A stretch of DNA of 64,000 bases from the sequence record MN850590.1. One strand, written 5' to 3'. This DNA is from Escherichia phage moha. Both the position numbers and the translations under genes were made by a program. Positions 1 through 20,925 of the stretch are shown piece by piece (within the stretch, counting starts at the first letter, position 1; every line of letters begins with the position of its first letter). The notes beneath the pieces are model-generated. The model saw only the letters and a list, made by a program, of their open reading frames with translations. It did not search any database and was not told the DNA's origin.

Positions 1-41
1 GTTAGAATTAACTCTCTTATACTGAATTGAAAGGAAAAATA

Positions 42-563
42 ATGGCACACTTTAACGAATGTTCACAACTTATTTCTGGTGTTGATAAAGCAGAAGAAGC
101 TTATTTTAATGCTCTGATTCACGAAGATAAAGACCCACTGCAGGTAATGCTTGATATGCAGAAATCTTTACAGGTTCGTCTGGCAAATGACAAGCCTGAA
201 CATAACAAACATCCTGATGAATTGGTCACTGCTGGCGATGTTGTTGATTGGCTGCGTAATCAGAAAGATTATATTGATGATGAATTCCGTGAACTGCTGA
301 CTTCACTTGGTGGTATGAGCAATGGTGAAAAAGCCGCTAGCTCTGTATGGAAGCCATGGAAAGCACAACATGCTGAATATCGAAATCGTCGTATCGATGA
401 ACTGTCTCCTGAAGACCAGCTTGAAATTAAATTTGAAATGATTGATATTCTGCACTTCGTTCTGAACATGTTCCAAGGTCTGGGTCTTTCTGCTGAAGAA
501 ATCTTTAAACTGTATTATCTGAAGAATGCTGAAAACTTTGCTCGTCAAGACCGAGGTTATTAA
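42..563 (+). CDS. 56: dCTP pyrophosphatase (MazG-like dCTPase, gp56)
   Basis: MazG-like acidic helix motif KFEMIDILHFVLNMF; length and sequence closely resemble T4 gp56 from memory; start moved to ATG at 42 behind an AGGA RBS. Confidence 0.8.
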   Translation: MAHFNECSQLISGVDKAEEAYFNALIHEDKDPLQVMLDMQKSLQVRLANDKPEHNKHPDELVTAGDVVDWLRNQKDYIDDEFRELLTSLGGMSNGEKAASSVWKPWKAQHAEYRNRRIDELSPEDQLEIKFEMIDILHFVLNMFQGLGLSAEEIFKLYYLKNAENFARQDRGY

Positions 564-10694: not shown

Positions 10695-12512
10695 ATGATT
10701 AAAAATGAAATTAAGGTATTGTCAGATGTAGAACATATTAAGAAACGTAGTGGTATGTATATTGGTTCTTCTGCTAAAGAAGCACATGAGCGTTTTTTGT
10801 TTGGTAAATATCAACAAGTTGAATATGTTCCTGGTCTGGTTAAATTAATCGATGAGATTATTGACAACTCGGTTGATGAATCTATTCGTACATCATTTAA
10901 GTTTGCAAATAAAATTGATGTGCAAATTAAAAATAATCAAGTTTCGGTGGAAGATAACGGACGTGGTATTCCTCAAGGTTTAGTTACCGACCAAACAGGT
11001 GAACAAATTCCTGGGCCTGTAGCAGCCTGGACTATTCCAAAGGCTGGTGGTAACTTTGGTGATGATTCTGAACGCAAGACTGGTGGTATGAACGGCGTCG
11101 GGAGTAGTTTAACTAATATCTTCTCTACGTTGTTTACAGGCATCACGTCAGATGGCGAAAATGAAATCACTGTTAATTGTTCAAACGGAATGGAAAACAA
11201 ATCATGGTCTTCTAAGAAATCTAAATGTAAAGGCACTAAAGTAATCTTCACTCCTGATTTCTCTTCATTTGAAGAGCATAATTTATCTCAAATTTATTTA
11301 GATATTACTTTAGACAGACTTCAAACATTGGCAGTCGTTTATCCTGATATCAAGTTCACATTTAATGGTAAAAAGGTTGATGGTAATTTTAAACGATTTG
11401 CTAAACAATTTGGTGAAGATAACATCATTCAAGAAAATGATAAAGTCTCTATAGCATTCACAACATCACCAGATGGCTTCCGTCATTTAACTTATGTGAA
11501 TAACATCCATACTAAAAATGGTGGTCATCATGTTGAATGTGTAATGGATGATATCTGCGAACATCTTTTGCCCGGTATTAAAAAGAAATATAAGGGTATT
11601 GAAGTCACTAAAGCTCGTGTTAAAGAATGTCTCACAATGTTGATGTTTATTAGAGACATGAGCAACATGCGTTTTGATTCTCAGACTAAAGAACGTTTAA
11701 CGTCAACGTATGGTGATATTCGTAATCATATCCAATTAGATGCTAAGAAAATTGCTCAGGCACTTCTTAAAAACGAAGCCTTGATTATGCCTATTGTTGA
11801 AGCAGCATTAGCTCGTAAATTGGCAGCAGAAAAGGCTGCAGAAACTAAAGCAGCTAAAAAGGCAACTAAAGCTAAGGTTCATAAGCATATTAAAGCTAAC
11901 CAATGTGGTAAAGATGCAGATACGACATTGTTTTTAACAGAAGGTGATTCGGCAATTGGTTATCTCATTGATGTTCGTGACCGTGAACTACACGGCGGAT
12001 TCCCATTACGTGGTAAGGTGATGAATAGCTGGGGTATGTCATATGCTGATATGATGAAGAACAAAGAGCTCTTTGATATCTGTGCTATCACGGGTCTTAT
12101 TCTTGGTGAAAAGGCAGAGAATACGAACTATCGTAATATTGCAATTATGACCGATGCCGATCATGACGGTCTTGGAAGTATCTATCCGGCTTTGCTTGCT
12201 TTCTTTAGTAATTGGCCTGAATTGTTTGAACAAGGACGTATTCGCTTTGTTAAAACACCTGTAATTATTGCACAAATTGGCAAAGCTCAAAAATGGTTTT
12301 ATACTGTAGCTGAGTATGAAGAAGTTAAAGATACACTGCCTAAGCATAGTATTCGATACATCAAGGGATTAGGCTCCCTTGAAAAGTCAGAATATCGTGA
12401 AATGATTCAGAACCCTGTGTACGACGTAGTTAAACTTCCTGAAAATTGGAAAGAACTCTTTGAAATGTTGATGGGTGATGATTCAGAACTTCGTAAAGAA
12501 TGGATGTCCTAA
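10695..12512 (+). CDS. 39: DNA topoisomerase II large subunit (GyrB-like ATPase plus TOPRIM), fused 39/60 form
   Basis: GHKL N-box IIDNSVDE, TOPRIM LTEGDSA, 605 aa continuous ORF. Confidence 0.92.
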   Translation: MIKNEIKVLSDVEHIKKRSGMYIGSSAKEAHERFLFGKYQQVEYVPGLVKLIDEIIDNSVDESIRTSFKFANKIDVQIKNNQVSVEDNGRGIPQGLVTDQTGEQIPGPVAAWTIPKAGGNFGDDSERKTGGMNGVGSSLTNIFSTLFTGITSDGENEITVNCSNGMENKSWSSKKSKCKGTKVIFTPDFSSFEEHNLSQIYLDITLDRLQTLAVVYPDIKFTFNGKKVDGNFKRFAKQFGEDNIIQENDKVSIAFTTSPDGFRHLTYVNNIHTKNGGHHVECVMDDICEHLLPGIKKKYKGIEVTKARVKECLTMLMFIRDMSNMRFDSQTKERLTSTYGDIRNHIQLDAKKIAQALLKNEALIMPIVEAALARKLAAEKAAETKAAKKATKAKVHKHIKANQCGKDADTTLFLTEGDSAIGYLIDVRDRELHGGFPLRGKVMNSWGMSYADMMKNKELFDICAITGLILGEKAENTNYRNIAIMTDADHDGLGSIYPALLAFFSNWPELFEQGRIRFVKTPVIIAQIGKAQKWFYTVAEYEEVKDTLPKHSIRYIKGLGSLEKSEYREMIQNPVYDVVKLPENWKELFEMLMGDDSELRKEWMS

Positions 12513-12554: not shown

Positions 12555-13655
12555 ATGAAAGTTATGTTTATCCCATCTCGTGCAGTCCCATTTAACCCAG
12601 AACGTGTACAAGGTGGTCTTGAAGCAGTACATTTAAATGTGTTGAAATATCTTGTGTCCATCGGTGCCGATATTGATTATATTGGTTTTGATAATGACAC
12701 ATTTGGTGATTGGAAGGTTAATCATCATCCTGTTGGTCATCTGACTAAATTCAGTCTAGGTATGAGTTATACTATGGCTCGTAAGATTGTTGAACTAGCC
12801 GGCATCCATGAATACGATTTTGTTGTTACTATGGAACCGACTAAACTAACCGTTCAGGCAATTAAAGACGCAGGTCTCTCTAAAGTTCATAAGAATTTTA
12901 TGGCAACACCATTTGAACCGGTATCTCGTGGCATTGTTCAAATTTGGGACCAGACTATTCAAATTCATAAGAATGGTGGTAAGAGTTATGCTCCTACTAA
13001 AGCCTTCCGTGAATTTGAACGTAAATATTGTTATATGACTTCAGGTCTGACTGACAAAATTGATTATGATTATTGGCGAGCAAATCCTTTGTTTGAAGCC
13101 GAAGATTATCCGGTTATTTGTTTGACTGAAAAGCCAGAAGTTCTTCCGGCGACGGATCTGATTATTAGTGCACAACGTTATGACACTAAAATGCGTCGTA
13201 CTGATGTTGCTCTTGAAGCGATTAAAGCACTAGGCGAAAATGGTGCAGGATACTGTCCAAGCAAATGGGCGCCACCGGCTAAATATCCTGTTATTATTGA
13301 TGCTCCACACAGTGAAATTATGGAACGTCTTAAAACAGCTAAAGCACTTATTAATACGTGTCCTGACACAGGTACGGTAGAGAATAGTTCTATTGAAGCC
13401 ATCTCTAAAGGTGTCCCTGTAATCCAGTTAGTTTTTAAGGATTATCCTCATGCGACATTTGAATACGACCCAGATACTGTGCGTGTAGAAATTGATTCCT
13501 CTACTCCTAAGAAAGAAGTAGTTGCGCTTTACACAAAAGCTGTATTAGAATTCACTGACACATACGAAGCTCGAGTTAAACGTGCTGAAGCAGTATGGAA
13601 GAAGTATAACCGAGATGCAGTTGTTGCGATGTGGGATAAAATCTTCACAGCGTAA
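12555..13655 (+). CDS. GT-B fold glycosyltransferase (GT4-like), candidate DNA sugar-modification enzyme
   Basis: N-terminal MKVMFIP...GGLE motif and C-terminal E-x7-E-like block TGTVENSSIEAISKGVPVIQ; 366 aa. Confidence 0.7.
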   Translation: MKVMFIPSRAVPFNPERVQGGLEAVHLNVLKYLVSIGADIDYIGFDNDTFGDWKVNHHPVGHLTKFSLGMSYTMARKIVELAGIHEYDFVVTMEPTKLTVQAIKDAGLSKVHKNFMATPFEPVSRGIVQIWDQTIQIHKNGGKSYAPTKAFREFERKYCYMTSGLTDKIDYDYWRANPLFEAEDYPVICLTEKPEVLPATDLIISAQRYDTKMRRTDVALEAIKALGENGAGYCPSKWAPPAKYPVIIDAPHSEIMERLKTAKALINTCPDTGTVENSSIEAISKGVPVIQLVFKDYPHATFEYDPDTVRVEIDSSTPKKEVVALYTKAVLEFTDTYEARVKRAEAVWKKYNRDAVVAMWDKIFTA

Positions 13656-13960: not shown

Positions 13961-16174
13961 ATGATTATTGAAACGGCTAAAGAAACGATTATTGGTTCAG
14001 GCGGTAAGAGCACAGCATTCACTATTCAAGGCAATAGCAAAGTTTATAAGATTTTGTCTAATGACCTTTATACAAACAAAGAATTGGCTTGTGTACGTGA
14101 ATTAATCACAAACTGTATCGATGGACAAATTCTTAATGGTTGCACTGATAAGTTTATTGTTCAGGCTCCAGGTCGTTTAGACCCACGTTTTGTAGTTCGA
14201 GACTTTGGTCCTGGTATGAGTGATTTCACCATTCGAGGTAATGACGAAGAGCCAGGAATCTATAACTCATATTTTGCTTCAACTAAAACATCGAGTAACG
14301 ATTTCATTGGTGGATTCGGACTCGGCTCTAAAGCTCCATTAGCATATACCGATACGTTTAACCTTACGTCTTATCACAACGGTGAAGTTCGTGGTTACGT
14401 AATCTACCAAGATGACACTGGTCCACAGATTAAGCCAACCTTCGTAGATAAGATGGGTCCTGATGACCGGACCGGCGTTGAAGTAGTTGTACCGGTTAAC
14501 CCAGAAGATTTTGAAAAGTTCGCATCCGAAATTGCATATGTTATGCGTCCTCTAGGTGATATTGCAGAAGTTCGCGGTGTTAAAGATATCAAATACTTTC
14601 CTGAATTCGATGATGTTTATTTAGCCAAGGAAGCTCCATGGGGTGAACGTGGTAATATCATGGCTGTTTATGGTGGTATTGTATATCCAATCGGAAGTGT
14701 TATTAAAGAACAAACATGGATGATGACGCGATGCACTACAGCTTATATTAAATTCCCTATGGGTGAACTAGATGTAGCCCCGTCTCGTGAAGCATTGTCA
14801 TTTGATAAACGTACAGTAGCAAATATCCATAAACGCGTTGCAGAAATCGATGCTAAATTGTTCGCTGAAGATTCTAAGAAATGGATTGATTGTAAATACC
14901 CACGTCATGTGTTCCGTGAAATTGATTCTCTTGGCTATACCGCTCGTAAATACATGGAAAAGGCTGGGTCTAATATTGAATCACTGAAATACTCTAAAGA
15001 ACAACTAACTTATTCCGAGTTGTACAAACGTTTTAAAATGGGACCCGAATGGTGCAACCTTGGCGTTGTATATGATATCGTTTCAGACCCACGACTTCGT
15101 CGTATTCGTGAAAGCGGAAGCTCGTCTGCAACTATTTCAATTAATAGCCTGCTAGGTATTAGTCGTAAGCATATTGATATCGTTATTGACGATGTGAAAG
15201 GCCGCGTACCAATGATGCGTGCTCTGAACGATGCTTTGACTTCCACCGATGCATCAACACTCGTTGATAAGGTTCCTTCCGGATGGGGTAGTAGCGTATT
15301 ATTCATTAACCCGGAAGATGAAGTTGCAATGAAACTTCTGGAACGATTAAAGGTTATTTTCGCTGGTGATAGCCTTAAATTTTATAAGACCTCTGAAATT
15401 CTTGCATTAGTTAAACCATGGATTGAAGTTAAAGAACGTTCATCGCAGCCTCGTCCTAAATCCCCAAGTGCTCATCGGTTCTTTAAGAATGAAAACGATG
15501 TTTGGGTATCGGAAGATCTCTTTATTCCAGCGAGTGAAGCTGGTGAAATCCAAGGTTATGCTATAGTTCGTAATCGTTCTAATGCTGAATGTCTTGACGC
15601 AGATAAAGGTTGGTTGAACTATGACTCTAATTTCTTGACCCGTATTGCTGATTTGTCAGATATTAAAGAGTTCACTGTAGTCCGTCCACAGATTGCTAAG
15701 AAAGTTCGTAAACTTGGTGAAGTAGAATGCTTGTTCGAAAAATCAATTAATGACTATATTACGCTAATCGATAAAGTAGATTATGATGAGTATGTATCAC
15801 CAAGTCGTAGAGCACAGCCCTATCTAAACCATATTACTCGTAATGAAGAGCTTAACTTCCTTAGTAAGTATTTTAGCTCTAAGAACAAAGAAATCAGTAA
15901 AGATTTTGCAAAACTCTCCACAGTAAATAATCGCTGGGGATGGAATCGATTCGCAGGTGCTACTAATACAGACCTGAATAAGAAGTTAGAATTGTGTGCT
16001 AAAATTTTCGATAAGCTTAAAGATAATGCTTACGATAATGATGATAAAATGATTATTGAATTCGAAACCAATTATCATATTGTGTCAGAATACATGGGAC
16101 GACGTGGTACTCTTTCAAAAGAACAGGTCGCTCAAATCGTTAAATTCATGAAGGCCGTGGAAGCGGCCAAATAA
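13961..16174 (+). CDS. rIIA: rIIA membrane-associated protein (GHKL ATPase-like)
   Basis: N-terminal region with ELITNCIDG motif closely resembles T4 rIIA as remembered; 737 aa. Confidence 0.9.
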   Translation: MIIETAKETIIGSGGKSTAFTIQGNSKVYKILSNDLYTNKELACVRELITNCIDGQILNGCTDKFIVQAPGRLDPRFVVRDFGPGMSDFTIRGNDEEPGIYNSYFASTKTSSNDFIGGFGLGSKAPLAYTDTFNLTSYHNGEVRGYVIYQDDTGPQIKPTFVDKMGPDDRTGVEVVVPVNPEDFEKFASEIAYVMRPLGDIAEVRGVKDIKYFPEFDDVYLAKEAPWGERGNIMAVYGGIVYPIGSVIKEQTWMMTRCTTAYIKFPMGELDVAPSREALSFDKRTVANIHKRVAEIDAKLFAEDSKKWIDCKYPRHVFREIDSLGYTARKYMEKAGSNIESLKYSKEQLTYSELYKRFKMGPEWCNLGVVYDIVSDPRLRRIRESGSSSATISINSLLGISRKHIDIVIDDVKGRVPMMRALNDALTSTDASTLVDKVPSGWGSSVLFINPEDEVAMKLLERLKVIFAGDSLKFYKTSEILALVKPWIEVKERSSQPRPKSPSAHRFFKNENDVWVSEDLFIPASEAGEIQGYAIVRNRSNAECLDADKGWLNYDSNFLTRIADLSDIKEFTVVRPQIAKKVRKLGEVECLFEKSINDYITLIDKVDYDEYVSPSRRAQPYLNHITRNEELNFLSKYFSSKNKEISKDFAKLSTVNNRWGWNRFAGATNTDLNKKLELCAKIFDKLKDNAYDNDDKMIIEFETNYHIVSEYMGRRGTLSKEQVAQIVKFMKAVEAAK

Positions 16175-16183
16175 GGAAACATT

Positions 16184-17131
16184 ATGTACAATATCAAATG
16201 CTTGTCCCAAGAAGAACAGTTAGAAGCTTACGGCCTGGTTGAATCAGGCAAATGGACTCGTAAAGAAATTGCCGATTACTTCGACATTTCAACAGATACT
16301 CTTCGTAAGATTGTTAAGAATTTTAAAGCAGAAGGCGTTGTCCCTGAAGCAAACGATGCCTCTTATGTAATCGAAGAAGTTCCAGAAAATGATGAACCTA
16401 TTATCGGCGGCCATCGTCCTGAAATCGTATGGAACGCGTCATCTAAATTTATTTCAATTATTGAAGGACGCGTAGCATACAATGCGACTCCATCAAGTCA
16501 TGCAAATTTTGAAGAAATTAAAGCTAATCTGGTCGCAGGAAACCTTAGTAAAGCTGTCGAACTTATTAACATCAAGAAAGCTATTAGTAAGTTTGTTGAC
16601 GGTAATGTTGTTATTGAAGGTGGTAGTTTATTTTATCAAGGTATAGAAATTCGTTCAGGACTGGTTAATCGTATTATTGATTCCATGGAAAAAGGCGAAG
16701 ACTTTAAATTCTATCTGCCGTTCCTTGAAAACCTGTTAGAAAACCCAAGCGAAAAAGCTGTACAACGTTTATTCGACTTCTTGGTTGCAAACGATATTGA
16801 AATCACTGAAGATGGTCATTTCTATGCGTGGAAAGTAGTTCGTAAGGACTATTTAGACTGCTATAGTGGTACATTTGATAACTCCCCAGGTAAAGTTGTT
16901 TCAATGCCTCGTACTCGAGTTAACGACGATGATACTCAAACCTGTTCTCGCGGTCTCCACGTTTGTGCTAAATCTTATATTCGCCACTTTGGTTCAAGCT
17001 CAGATAAAGTTGTGAAAGTTAAAGTTCATCCACGTGATGTTGTATCCATCCCGGTTGACTATGGTGATGCTAAGATGCGTACATGTCGTTATGAAGTAAT
17101 TTCAGACGTTACTGAATTATTTGCAGAATAA
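16184..17131 (+). CDS. rIIB: rIIB protein
   Basis: 315 aa immediately downstream of rIIA; T4 rIIB is 312 aa. Confidence 0.8.
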   Translation: MYNIKCLSQEEQLEAYGLVESGKWTRKEIADYFDISTDTLRKIVKNFKAEGVVPEANDASYVIEEVPENDEPIIGGHRPEIVWNASSKFISIIEGRVAYNATPSSHANFEEIKANLVAGNLSKAVELINIKKAISKFVDGNVVIEGGSLFYQGIEIRSGLVNRIIDSMEKGEDFKFYLPFLENLLENPSEKAVQRLFDFLVANDIEITEDGHFYAWKVVRKDYLDCYSGTFDNSPGKVVSMPRTRVNDDDTQTCSRGLHVCAKSYIRHFGSSSDKVVKVKVHPRDVVSIPVDYGDAKMRTCRYEVISDVTELFAE

Positions 17132-17136
17132 TAATT

Positions 17137-17160
17137 GGGGACTTCGGTCCCCTTTTTTCT
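17137..17160 (+). terminator. intrinsic terminator
   Basis: gggga-cttcgg-tcccc then TTTTTT. Confidence 0.7.
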
Positions 17161-17172
17161 TTAGGGGTAATT

Positions 17173-17460
17173 ATGATTCATCCATTTGACGTATCAGAAT
17201 CCAAAATCGCTAATCTTCGTGGCCATCATAAATGTAAATCAGTGTATTGCGCTAAATTGGTAAAACACCCAGGTGATGCACACTATGGCTGGTTAGAATG
17301 TGACGAAGTTGTTATTGAAATCCCACCGGTAGATGCAGAATATCTTGAAGAAGGTGACCGCATTTATTTTGGCGAACTACACATTAGAGGTATCTATGGT
17401 AAAGACGAACTTGGGACTGTTGAGGCTGAAGAGTCTTCCGACATTTATCCTGTCGAATGA
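17173..17460 (+). CDS. hypothetical protein
   Basis: 95 aa ORF. Confidence 0.45.
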   Translation: MIHPFDVSESKIANLRGHHKCKSVYCAKLVKHPGDAHYGWLECDEVVIEIPPVDAEYLEEGDRIYFGELHIRGIYGKDELGTVEAEESSDIYPVE

Positions 17461-17476
17461 GTTTTTGACTAGCGAA

Positions 17477-17953
17477 ATGAAGGTTAAGATCGCTGATACT
17501 GCTCGGTACTCGTTGAAACAAGATCCAGGTCAAATAAAAGAAGACGTTGTTCGACGTTGTAAGGTTGCAGTCTTTGCAGAGTATGTAGTAGCAAATTGGC
17601 TAGACGGATATGTTAATAAAGGTAATGAAGACGTAGAAGACCCGTACACGTATGCATGGGACGTTTTAGCTCATCCTAAGTACTGTGGTCTACGCGTAGA
17701 AGTAAAGACCCATCAGATGGATTCGAAATGGATTTCGGTTACCACAGGATACGGTGGTGATTATCCGGGTGGCAACGGAATAAACATAGGGCCCTTCCTT
17801 AATCATCGAGTCGCTGACTGTATTATTATATTGAATGTCAAAGAAACCTCACCTGACGTCTTCTCTTATTCTATAAAGTTTGTGGGAGACCATGAAGACC
17901 TAAAGAAAATCGTCCGCAAGAGCAACTACAACGGGTGGTATCTTCATCTTTAA
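17477..17953 (+). CDS. putative PD-(D/E)xK-like nuclease (possible denB-region gene)
   Basis: candidate D ... EVK motif (AWDV ... RVEVKT); 159 aa; located after rIIB where T4 carries denB. Confidence 0.45.
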   Translation: MKVKIADTARYSLKQDPGQIKEDVVRRCKVAVFAEYVVANWLDGYVNKGNEDVEDPYTYAWDVLAHPKYCGLRVEVKTHQMDSKWISVTTGYGGDYPGGNGINIGPFLNHRVADCIIILNVKETSPDVFSYSIKFVGDHEDLKKIVRKSNYNGWYLHL

Positions 17954-17965
17954 TTTCATAAAAGT

Positions 17966-17995
17966 GTTTACAACTAAGTAGGACTATGATATATT
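17966..17995 (+). promoter_or_regulatory. T4-type early promoter
   Basis: GTTTACA, TATATT; palindrome taggacta/tagtccta flanks -10. Confidence 0.55.
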
Positions 17996-18021
17996 AGTCC
18001 TATCTAAAAGAGGATAACATC

Positions 18022-18474: not shown

Positions 18475-18504
18475 GTTTACATCACGGTAGGATTATGGTA
18501 TAGT
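18475..18504 (+). promoter_or_regulatory. T4-type early promoter
   Basis: GTTTACA, 18 bp spacer, TATAGT. Confidence 0.55.
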
Positions 18505-18735: not shown

Positions 18736-18765
18736 TTGTACAAACTCTTGAGAGCAGAGTATAAT
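18736..18765 (+). promoter_or_regulatory. T4-type early promoter
   Basis: TTGTACA, TATAAT flanked by palindrome gagagca/tgctctc. Confidence 0.6.
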
Positions 18766-18809: not shown

Positions 18810-19256
18810 ATGTCCAAATATTTAACTCGTAAAGACCTTCTGGCAGTTGGCGGTGAAGTTGTTGCAGTAGTTCGTAATGGCGAATACGGTTCTGAAGTTT
18901 CTAAAGAGTTTCGTTCTCGTGAAGGTTTTTACTTCTTCGTTAAAGGTTCATCTGATTGGCGACAAGTAGCAGCACGATTCTTTGTAGGACGTCAACGTTC
19001 TAAACAAGGGTTGGATGCAATTCTTTCTCACATTCGTCAAGGCCGTTCGCAACTAGCCCGTACCATGGGCACTAACAATATTGAATATGATGTAATCTTT
19101 GTTGCAGCTAAGAACATGAAACCACTGACCACTGGTTATGGTAAAGGTCAATTGGCTCTGGCATTCACTCGCAATCATACATCAGAATATCAAACACTCA
19201 CCGAAATGAACCGTCTTCTGGCCGATAATTTCAAATTCATTCTGCAGAGTTACTAA
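18810..19256 (+). CDS. ndd: Ndd nucleoid disruption protein
   Basis: 148 aa; C-terminal [20 protein letters not shown]...[11 protein letters not shown] matches T4 Ndd as remembered. Confidence 0.85.
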
Positions 19257-19599: not shown

Positions 19600-20925
19600 A
19601 TGCAATTGAATTCTCGTAATCTAAAAAGTATTATTGATAACGAAGCCTTAGCATATGCGATGTACACCGTTGAAAACCGTGCAATCCCAAACATGATTGA
19701 TGGATTTAAGCCGGTTCAACGTTTTGTGGTCCATCGTGCGTTAGATTTGGCTCGTGGTAATAAAGAAAAATTTCATAAACTTGCGTCAATTGCAGGCGGT
19801 GTTGCAGATTTAGGTTATCACCATGGTGAATCTTCTGCACAAGATGCAGGTGCATTGATGGCTAACACATGGAACAACAACTATCCACTGTTAGATGGCC
19901 AAGGCAACTTTGGTTCTAGAACAGTCCAAAAAGCTGCAGCATCTCGTTATATTTTTGCTCGTGTAAGTAAAAATTTCTATAACGTATATAAAGATACTGA
20001 ATATGCTCCAGCTCATGAAGATAAAGAACACATTCCACCAAAATTTTATCTTCCTATTATTCCGACAGTTCTTTTGAATGGCGTCTCTGGTATTGCAACC
20101 GGTTACGCAACAAATATTCTGCCTCATAGTTTTAAATCAGTCAAAAAGGCTGTATTACAAGCTCTTCAAGGTAAAAATGTCACTAAGCCAAAAGTTGAAT
20201 TCCCGGAATTCCATGGCGAAGTACATGAAGTTGATGGGCGTTATGAGATTCACGGAACATATAAGTTCACATCTCGCACTCAAATGCAGATAACTGAAAT
20301 CCCATATAAATTCGACCGTGAAACGTATGTGAGTAAGGTTCTTGACCCATTAGAAGATAAAGGTCTAATCTCATGGGAAGATGATTGTGGTGAACACGGC
20401 TTTGGGTTTAAGGTGAAGTTCCGTAAAGAGTACTCGCTTCCAGATGACGAAGAGCTACGTCATGAAAAAATCATGAAAGATTTTAGTCTCATCGAACGTC
20501 GTTCACAAAACATCACAGTGATTAATGAAAAGGGTAAATTAGCGGTCTACGATAATGTAGTAGACTTAATCAAAGATTTTGTTGAAGTCCGTAAGACTTA
20601 CGTTCAGAAACGTATTGACAACAAAATCCTTGAATCTGAAAAAGCATTTAAACTGGCTTTTGCTAAGGCGCACTTCATCAAAAAAGTTATCAACGGTGAA
20701 ATTGTGATTCAGGGCAAGACTCGTAAAGCTTTGACTGAAGAGCTAGCACAAATCGAAATGTATAAAGAACATGTCGATAAACTGGTAGGTCTTAACATCT
20801 TCCATATCACTTCCGACGAAGCACGTAAACTAGCAGAAGAAGCTAAAGCTAAGAAAGAAGAAAATGAGTATTGGAAGTCTACTGATGTTGTGACAGAGTA
20901 CACTAAAGACTTGGAGGCACTTTGA
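19600..20925 (+). CDS. 52: DNA topoisomerase II medium subunit (GyrA-like)
   Basis: GyrA-like N-terminus NMIDGFKPVQRFVVHRA; 441 aa. Confidence 0.9.
   Translation: MQLNSRNLKSIIDNEALAYAMYTVENRAIPNMIDGFKPVQRFVVHRALDLARGNKEKFHKLASIAGGVADLGYHHGESSAQDAGALMANTWNNNYPLLDGQGNFGSRTVQKAAASRYIFARVSKNFYNVYKDTEYAPAHEDKEHIPPKFYLPIIPTVLLNGVSGIATGYATNILPHSFKSVKKAVLQALQGKNVTKPKVEFPEFHGEVHEVDGRYEIHGTYKFTSRTQMQITEIPYKFDRETYVSKVLDPLEDKGLISWEDDCGEHGFGFKVKFRKEYSLPDDEELRHEKIMKDFSLIERRSQNITVINEKGKLAVYDNVVDLIKDFVEVRKTYVQKRIDNKILESEKAFKLAFAKAHFIKKVINGEIVIQGKTRKALTEELAQIEMYKEHVDKLVGLNIFHITSDEARKLAEEAKAKKEENEYWKSTDVVTEYTKDLEAL

Follow-up and report, generated by a model that had tools for sequence, protein, structure and literature searches.

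A Mosigvirus denB (endonuclease IV) orthologue with a probable upstream start and a probable PD-(D/E)xK-type active site

The rIIB-ndd interval and its denB gene

The window analysed here is the whole 64,000-nucleotide stretch of DNA from Escherichia phage moha (record MN850590.1). An intact plus-strand ORF of 158 amino acids, running from an ATG at 17477 to a TAA at 17953, lies in this window between rIIB and ndd (Table 1). The gene order, rIIA-rIIB-small ORF-denB-ndd.x-ndd-ac-52.1-52, with two ndd.x-type small ORFs between denB and ndd, is that of T4, as judged by comparison with T4T and a Mosigvirus record. A sequence-only reading of the window had placed the ORF at the position of T4 denB, and the flanking genes bear this out.

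Table 1. Coordinates of the genes and sequence elements discussed in the text (residue numbers refer to the 185-aa protein)
Feature	Coordinates	Strand	Remarks
gp56 dCTPase-like ORF	27-563	+	Matches NTP pyrophosphohydrolase/dUTPase families
Topoisomerase II large subunit gp39, fused with gp60 part	10695-12512	+	Single 605-aa ORF
366-aa ORF, function not assigned	12555-13655	+	phrog_8302, E=3e-222
rIIA	13961-16174		Precedes rIIB in the T4-type gene order
rIIB, left synteny anchor	16184-17131	+	Annotated rIIB in collinear Mosigvirus and T4 records
Small ORF, 95 aa	17173-17460	+	Pfam DUF7418, E=6e-37; PHROG 2237, E=4e-35
Shine-Dalgarno-like AGAGG	17386-17390	+	5 nt before ATG 17396; read from sequence
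denB CDS, likeliest full-length form	17396-17953	+	558 nt, 185 aa plus stop; same length as T4 denB
Short denB form, 158 aa	17477-17953	+	ORF of the sequence-only reading; start annotated in Mosigvirus records
Glu62 codon	17579-17581	+	Helix 48-68; candidate metal ligand of first core helix; corresponds to Hjc E12
Trp88-Asp89 codons	17657-17662	+	Asp89, candidate 'PD' aspartate; aligned to Hjc D42
Glu102-Val103-Lys104 codons	17699-17707	+	Candidate (D/E)xK; strand 100-106; correspond to Hjc E55 and K57
Asp141 codon	17816-17818	+	Start of strand 142-152; invariant
Ser176-Trp181 codons (SNYNGW)	17921-17938	+	C-terminal segment, candidate substrate positioning
ndd, right synteny anchor	18810-19256	+	Pfam Phage_T4_Ndd, E=4e-89; PHROG 1102
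gp52	19600-20925		After ac and 52.1

The ORF matches PHROG 1360, 'DenB-like DNA endonuclease IV', with E=4e-81. A tblastn search of 50,697 phage records returned 1089 matching records, headed by Mosigvirus vB_Eco_mar005P1 at 99.4% identity; the denB genes of T4T, T2 and RB3 were matched at 74% identity and 100% query coverage. When the frame is read from an upstream ATG, as discussed below, the resulting 185-aa window protein aligns with T4 DenB without gaps over 185 aa at 72.6% identity, and the roughly 27% of residues that differ represent ordinary divergence between Mosigvirus and Tequatrovirus. With a 1-kb nucleotide query, 154 records were found at an identity of at least 90%, all of which are Mosigvirus T-even phages of Escherichia/Shigella, and the ORF is 94-99% identical to its copies in more than 150 Mosigvirus genomes. 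All homologues in a collection of 5.8 billion proteins carry PF26887 (Phage_T4_End_IV). Scans of the window protein against our local Pfam-A and NCBIfam copies gave zero matches because PF26887, which is absent from both, is newer than the local copy.

The match to the DenB family, taken together with the T4 gene order, argues that the gene is denB itself and not an analogue occupying the place of denB. The ORF is thus the plain denB orthologue (endonuclease IV) in a Mosigvirus (RB69-like T-even) phage, and the earlier suggestion of a denB analogue or a different nuclease does not hold for a protein that shares 73-74% identity with T4 DenB from end to end. The gene is already known and already well studied: denB has been characterized genetically and biochemically since the 1960s-70s.

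The surroundings differ from those in T4 in several details. The number of ndd.x genes downstream of denB is not the same. The C-terminal ~150 aa of the topoisomerase large-subunit ORF match the gp60-type family phrog_7229, and thus genes 39 and 60, split in T4, are fused in the window. The 366-aa ORF lies between this fused gene and rIIA, a position taken in T4 by gene 60 and rIIA.1. The gp56-type ORF at the left end has a listed TTG start close to the edge of the window, and its true start may differ.

Directly after rIIB, and 20 nt before the DUF7418 ORF, is a strong GC hairpin (17137-17152) that has TTCG as its loop together with a T-run (GGGGACTTCGGTCCCC TTTTTTCTTT); in one related record it is marked as a terminator. 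A search for a MotA box or a sigma70 promoter immediately 5' of denB gave neither, and no promoter-like site was found between the hairpin and denB. The gene therefore seems to need read-through and is presumably transcribed in this way from upstream. Just 3' of denB, at 17967-18002, is a good sigma70-like promoter, TTTACA-17-TATATT with TG; an 8-bp inverted repeat (TAGGACTA...TAGTCCTA) overlaps it and covers its -10 region. Similar promoter-like sites at 18476-18504 and 18737-18765 lie ahead of the next small ORFs.

The start codon of denB

The open denB frame extends upstream of ATG 17477 to further ATG codons at 17396 and 17333. The 158-aa form is the one annotated in the GenBank/RefSeq Mosigvirus records LR027383, NC_041863 and MK373784. 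However, the sequence contains no Shine-Dalgarno motif before ATG 17477, whereas AGAGG precedes ATG 17396, which sits 81 nt further upstream; three other Mosigvirus genomes share this arrangement, with the motif the same or nearly the same.

The 27 residues that distinguish the long form from the short one read MVKTNLGLLRLKSLPTFILSNEFLTSE in the window protein and MQKTNPGLQRLFQIPTFTLSNSDLTCE in T4 DenB, with 17 of the 27 identical at a nucleotide identity of 58%. The codon differences over this segment comprise 9 synonymous and 10 non-synonymous changes. This degree of protein identity at such nucleotide identity, together with the codon pattern, therefore indicates selection on the long frame. 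Over its first 65 nt (17396-17460) the long frame overlaps the 3' end of the DUF7418 ORF in a different reading frame; T4 instead has an 83-nt spacer between denB.1 and denB. The overlap does not account for the conserved N-terminus, because the corresponding part of T4 denB overlaps no other gene. Within the DenB family, Met28 is not conserved, distant relatives without it keep the N-terminal segment, and the family profile covers the 27 residues in nearly all distant relatives, its match beginning at positions 1-4 in most representatives. The AlphaFold model described below gives residues 1-30 pLDDT values of 92-98 and folds them into a helix (6-12) and a strand (17-20).

We consider it unlikely that the product is instead the 158-aa protein made from ATG 17477, or that both forms are made. 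This alternative has in its favour that the short start is the annotated one in the closest records, that the long start needs a 65-nt gene overlap (which the Mosigvirus GenBank/RefSeq records sidestep by using the internal ATG), and that the stop of the upstream ORF (17458-17460) lies 17 nt before ATG 17477, so that the short form could come from re-initiation. Nevertheless, it leaves the short start without a ribosome-binding motif, and the extension that it discards is conserved both in T4 and in relatives lacking Met28, lies within the family profile and is modelled with confidence. In addition, the T4 biochemistry was all done on the 185-aa protein. A minor short isoform arising by re-initiation is conceivable, and production of both isoforms, tuning the toxicity of the enzyme, is a secondary possibility. 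Thus, denB probably begins at ATG 17396 and yields 185 aa as in T4, and the annotated 158-aa Mosigvirus DenB is probably a truncation missing 27 conserved, structured residues. The ORF singled out by the sequence-only reading is accordingly present in the window but probably has the wrong 5' boundary.

Candidate active site and predicted fold

The ORF contains A87-W88-D89-V90 and R100-V-E102-V-K104-T (185-aa numbering), in which a D...ExK arrangement typical of PD-(D/E)xK nucleases had been noticed. By itself this pattern is at chance level: of 2000 shuffles of the window protein, 79% contain D-x(8-30)-[DE]-x-K, as do 44 of 68 window ORFs of at least 100 aa. Family-wide conservation alone gives it meaning.

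Conservation was assessed in an alignment of 20 sequences, and then in one of 39 sequences (23-95% identity to the query) after representatives from an exhaustive HMM search had been added. The residues invariant in the 20 sequences include E62, G71, D82, P83, D89, R100, E102, K104, H106, Q107, D141, S176 and G180, with W181 nearly so. Conservation of at least 90% in the 39 sequences is found for E62, G71, D82-P83, D89, R100, E102, K104, S176 and Y182, and D141 alone is invariant throughout the 39. In principle D82, and not D89, might be the true 'PD' aspartate.

The residues defined by mutants in T4 and T2, namely G71, W88, S176, G180 and W181, are all kept in the window protein and are invariant or nearly so in the DenB family. 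In T4, W88R reduces activity to less than 0.4% of wild type and S176N abolishes polarized cleavage of dC tracts (PMC2175332). In T2, mutants at G71, G180 and W181 escape retron Eco2; G71R, described as lying near the active site, is inactive, and G180E and W181* are described as lying at the DNA-binding interface (PMC12916289). No mutants of D89, E102 or K104 were found in the DenB literature examined.

To our knowledge no DenB structure has been solved. AlphaFold (AF2) modelling with the 39-sequence alignment gave a mean pLDDT of 94.8 and a pTM of 0.90, with all five models above 92, and superseded an earlier model from 20 close sequences that had a pLDDT of 77.8 and weak Foldseek matches. 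The model consists of helix 48-68 (carrying E62), strands 72-73, 90-91 (with D89 at its start) and 100-106 (carrying E102 and K104), strand 113-116, helix 132-137 and strand 142-152 (with D141 at its start). Apart from an insertion, these elements succeed one another as in the restriction-endonuclease-like core (alpha-beta-beta-beta-alpha-beta).

Comparison of the model with 350,542 PDB chains using Foldseek gave nothing at E <= 0.001, the best match having E=0.054, with TM scores of at most 0.31 and probabilities of at most 0.23. Among the 50 best matches, none of them significant, 18 are PD-(D/E)xK enzymes: HincII (13 times), EcoRV, MutH, MGME1, RecU and Hjc. The best of these, HincII and EcoRV from the EcoRV-like branch of type II enzymes (TM 0.2-0.3, E >= 0.05, non-significant), are like DenB Mg2+-dependent phosphodiesterases, but they are dimeric, sequence-specific and act on dsDNA, whereas DenB is specific for ssDNA and for a base. 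Among predicted viral structures the model matched DenB orthologues as well as a group of uncharacterised phage proteins, of which one is named 'Restriction endonuclease' (E=1.4e-4).

Sequence comparisons point in the same direction at similarly low scores. In a loose-threshold Pfam scan of the 39 family members, in which all matches to the PD-(D/E)xK clan were below gathering thresholds, NOV_C/DUF3883 (PF13020) was matched by 15 members (best E=0.0066), PDDEXK_5 by one, and the Hjc model by one distant relative (E=0.0016) over the stretch from the helix to ExK. The NOV_C/DUF3883 matches, which are under the 22.1-bit gathering threshold, cover the D89...ExK region of these family members; the window protein itself matches nothing. 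DUF3883 is counted as a PD-(D/E)XK family (PMC3424549). In PDB sequences, phmmer and hmmsearch picked up nothing beyond noise (DHFR, PIL1, an odorant-binding protein; E >= 0.07). GIY-YIG, HNH and PBECR1-type RNase folds were rejected, there being no matches to them except one to PBECR1 (E=0.036) in one distant member.

The protein was also compared with Hjc (PF01870), the Holliday junction resolvase of archaea and a minimal PD-(D/E)xK nuclease. Alignment to the Hjc family profile with hhalign puts E62, D89, E102 and K104 on Hjc E12, D42, E55 and K57, which are invariant in the Hjc family alignment, although with P=0.031 and a probability of 1.6%. The single Sso Hjc sequence (PDB 1HH1) gave the right register at a probability of 0.3%, which the family profile raised to 1.6%. 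The spacing from Asp to Glu is the same 13 residues in both proteins (E-27-D-13-ExK in DenB, E-30-D-13-ExK in Hjc), and the DenB model has the helix-strand-strand-strand order of Hjc, but neither the sequence score nor the fold score is significant. Relative to Hjc, DenB carries additional elements: two helices and a strand at the N-terminus, an insertion that separates the third core strand from the second helix, and a beta-hairpin/SNYNGW segment at the C-terminus. The substrates also differ, being ssDNA at dC for DenB and four-way junctions for Hjc.

Because the conserved residues, the order of elements, the Hjc register, the sub-threshold Pfam matches and the enrichment of PD-(D/E)xK enzymes among the Foldseek matches agree, a PD-(D/E)xK-type active site at D89 and E102-x-K104 is the best-supported reading, and one that we regard as highly probable on the strength of modelling and alignment. 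The support is cumulative, and no single computational test here is significant. The same conclusion was reached in 2025, when a conserved 'PD_D/ExK' motif was assigned to DenB from AlphaFold2 models and alignments (PMC12405507). Thus, the PD-(D/E)xK idea of the sequence-only reading is probably right, although the motif on which it relied is uninformative alone. With respect to structure, the restriction-endonuclease-like element order is present and the residues align with those of Hjc, but the best Foldseek match reaches only E=0.054. With respect to sequence families, the similarity to T4 DenB is significant along the whole protein, but the Pfam matches to PD-(D/E)xK families are all sub-threshold.

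Two alternatives to a conventional PD-(D/E)xK enzyme were considered. It is improbable, in our estimate, that DenB represents a structurally distinct nuclease class, either a highly derived PD-(D/E)xK offshoot or a convergent fold. What speaks for it is that so confident a model has no significant counterpart among the PDB chains and that the family is tiny and restricted to T4-like phages. In its derived-offshoot version, which is conceivable, the enzyme would be an ssDNA- and cytosine-reading nuclease whose N-terminal helices and C-terminal SNYNGW form a new recognition module. Slightly less probable still is that this DenB orthologue has a nuclease fold of its own, outside PD-(D/E)xK, and that the D...ExK motif is coincidental or convergent. 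A model with a pLDDT of 94.8 that resembles no PDB structure at E <= 0.001 would be expected on this account, as would the empty profile searches of PDB sequences, the low hhalign probability and the frequency of the bare motif in shuffled sequences; moreover, a 2012 census of PD-(D/E)XK enzymes (PMC3424549) does not include DenB in its main text. However, four independent weak signals converge on the same superfamily and on the same four residues, with spacing and element order like those of Hjc. The W88R substitution, which kills the T4 enzyme, adjoins D89, and two structure-prediction studies put the active site there (PMC12916289, PMC12405507). We therefore retain the PD-(D/E)xK reading.

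Predicted activity and family distribution

What is known of DenB activity comes from T4 and T2, and its dC specificity, TCA preference, Mg2+ dependence, toxicity and cleavage of msDNA are extended to the window protein by analogy. T4 endonuclease IV requires divalent cations, cleaves ssDNA 5' of dC in a Mg2+-dependent manner and spares DNA containing hmC or glucosyl-hmC (PMC1635256). The T4 and T2 enzymes prefer TCA, are lethal on expression in E. coli and restrict dC-substituted phage DNA. They also nick retron-Eco2 msDNA, which unleashes the Eco2 defence, so that DenB is the phage trigger of this system.

By analogy with these enzymes, the gene product would be a small, most likely 185-aa, divalent-metal-dependent endonuclease that cuts ssDNA 5' of unmodified deoxycytidine. 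In the mechanism that we propose, Glu62 of the core helix, Asp89 of the second core strand and Glu102 of the third core strand would bind Mg2+, and Lys104 would hold the attacking water in place, as in Hjc and enzymes of the EcoRV type. The C-terminal Ser176-Trp181 segment may position the dC-containing strand, with which the T105-H106-Q107 stretch after ExK probably also makes contact. The phage, which belongs to Mosigvirus (Tevenvirinae), is expected to keep dC out of its own DNA, and the gp56-type ORF at the left end of the window is consistent with this. If so, DenB would attack host DNA, or any dC-containing DNA, and not the phage genome. Taken together, it is very likely that the gene is the Mosigvirus denB and that it encodes an endonuclease IV cutting ssDNA 5' of dC with a PD-(D/E)xK-type centre.

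It is very improbable that this DenB is degenerate and inactive or has been repurposed, for example as a dedicated anti-defence nuclease. In favour of this reading, it has been reported that retron Eco2 is not triggered by some phages carrying denB (PMC12916289). In the window, however, the ORF is intact and every invariant and experimentally critical residue is kept, and the 94-99% identity to copies in more than 150 Mosigvirus genomes indicates purifying selection on the canonical protein.

The findings matter little as a discovery, since denB already has a Pfam family, a PHROG and a published PD-(D/E)xK motif. They do have two practical consequences: the start of denB merits correction before anyone expresses the protein, and E62, D89, E102 and K104 are concrete targets for mutation of catalytic residues.

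The DenB family is small and confined to T4-like phages. Among 1.84 billion representatives, an exhaustive HMM search found just 27 clusters at 50% identity. A profile search for relatives with other Pfam domains, covering 5.8 billion proteins, returned PF26887 proteins only. Two members that are among the most distant come from T4-like contigs of marine or environmental origin (L005, 6160-7668; L006, 6445-8524). On both contigs the DenB-family gene adjoins a Thymidylat_synt-family gene and has a dCMP deaminase gene nearby, and on L006 it comes after a staphylococcal-nuclease-like (SNase) gene. These neighbourhoods suggest that DenB-type nucleases and pyrimidine-modification modules are linked, and are consistent with a functional connection between them.
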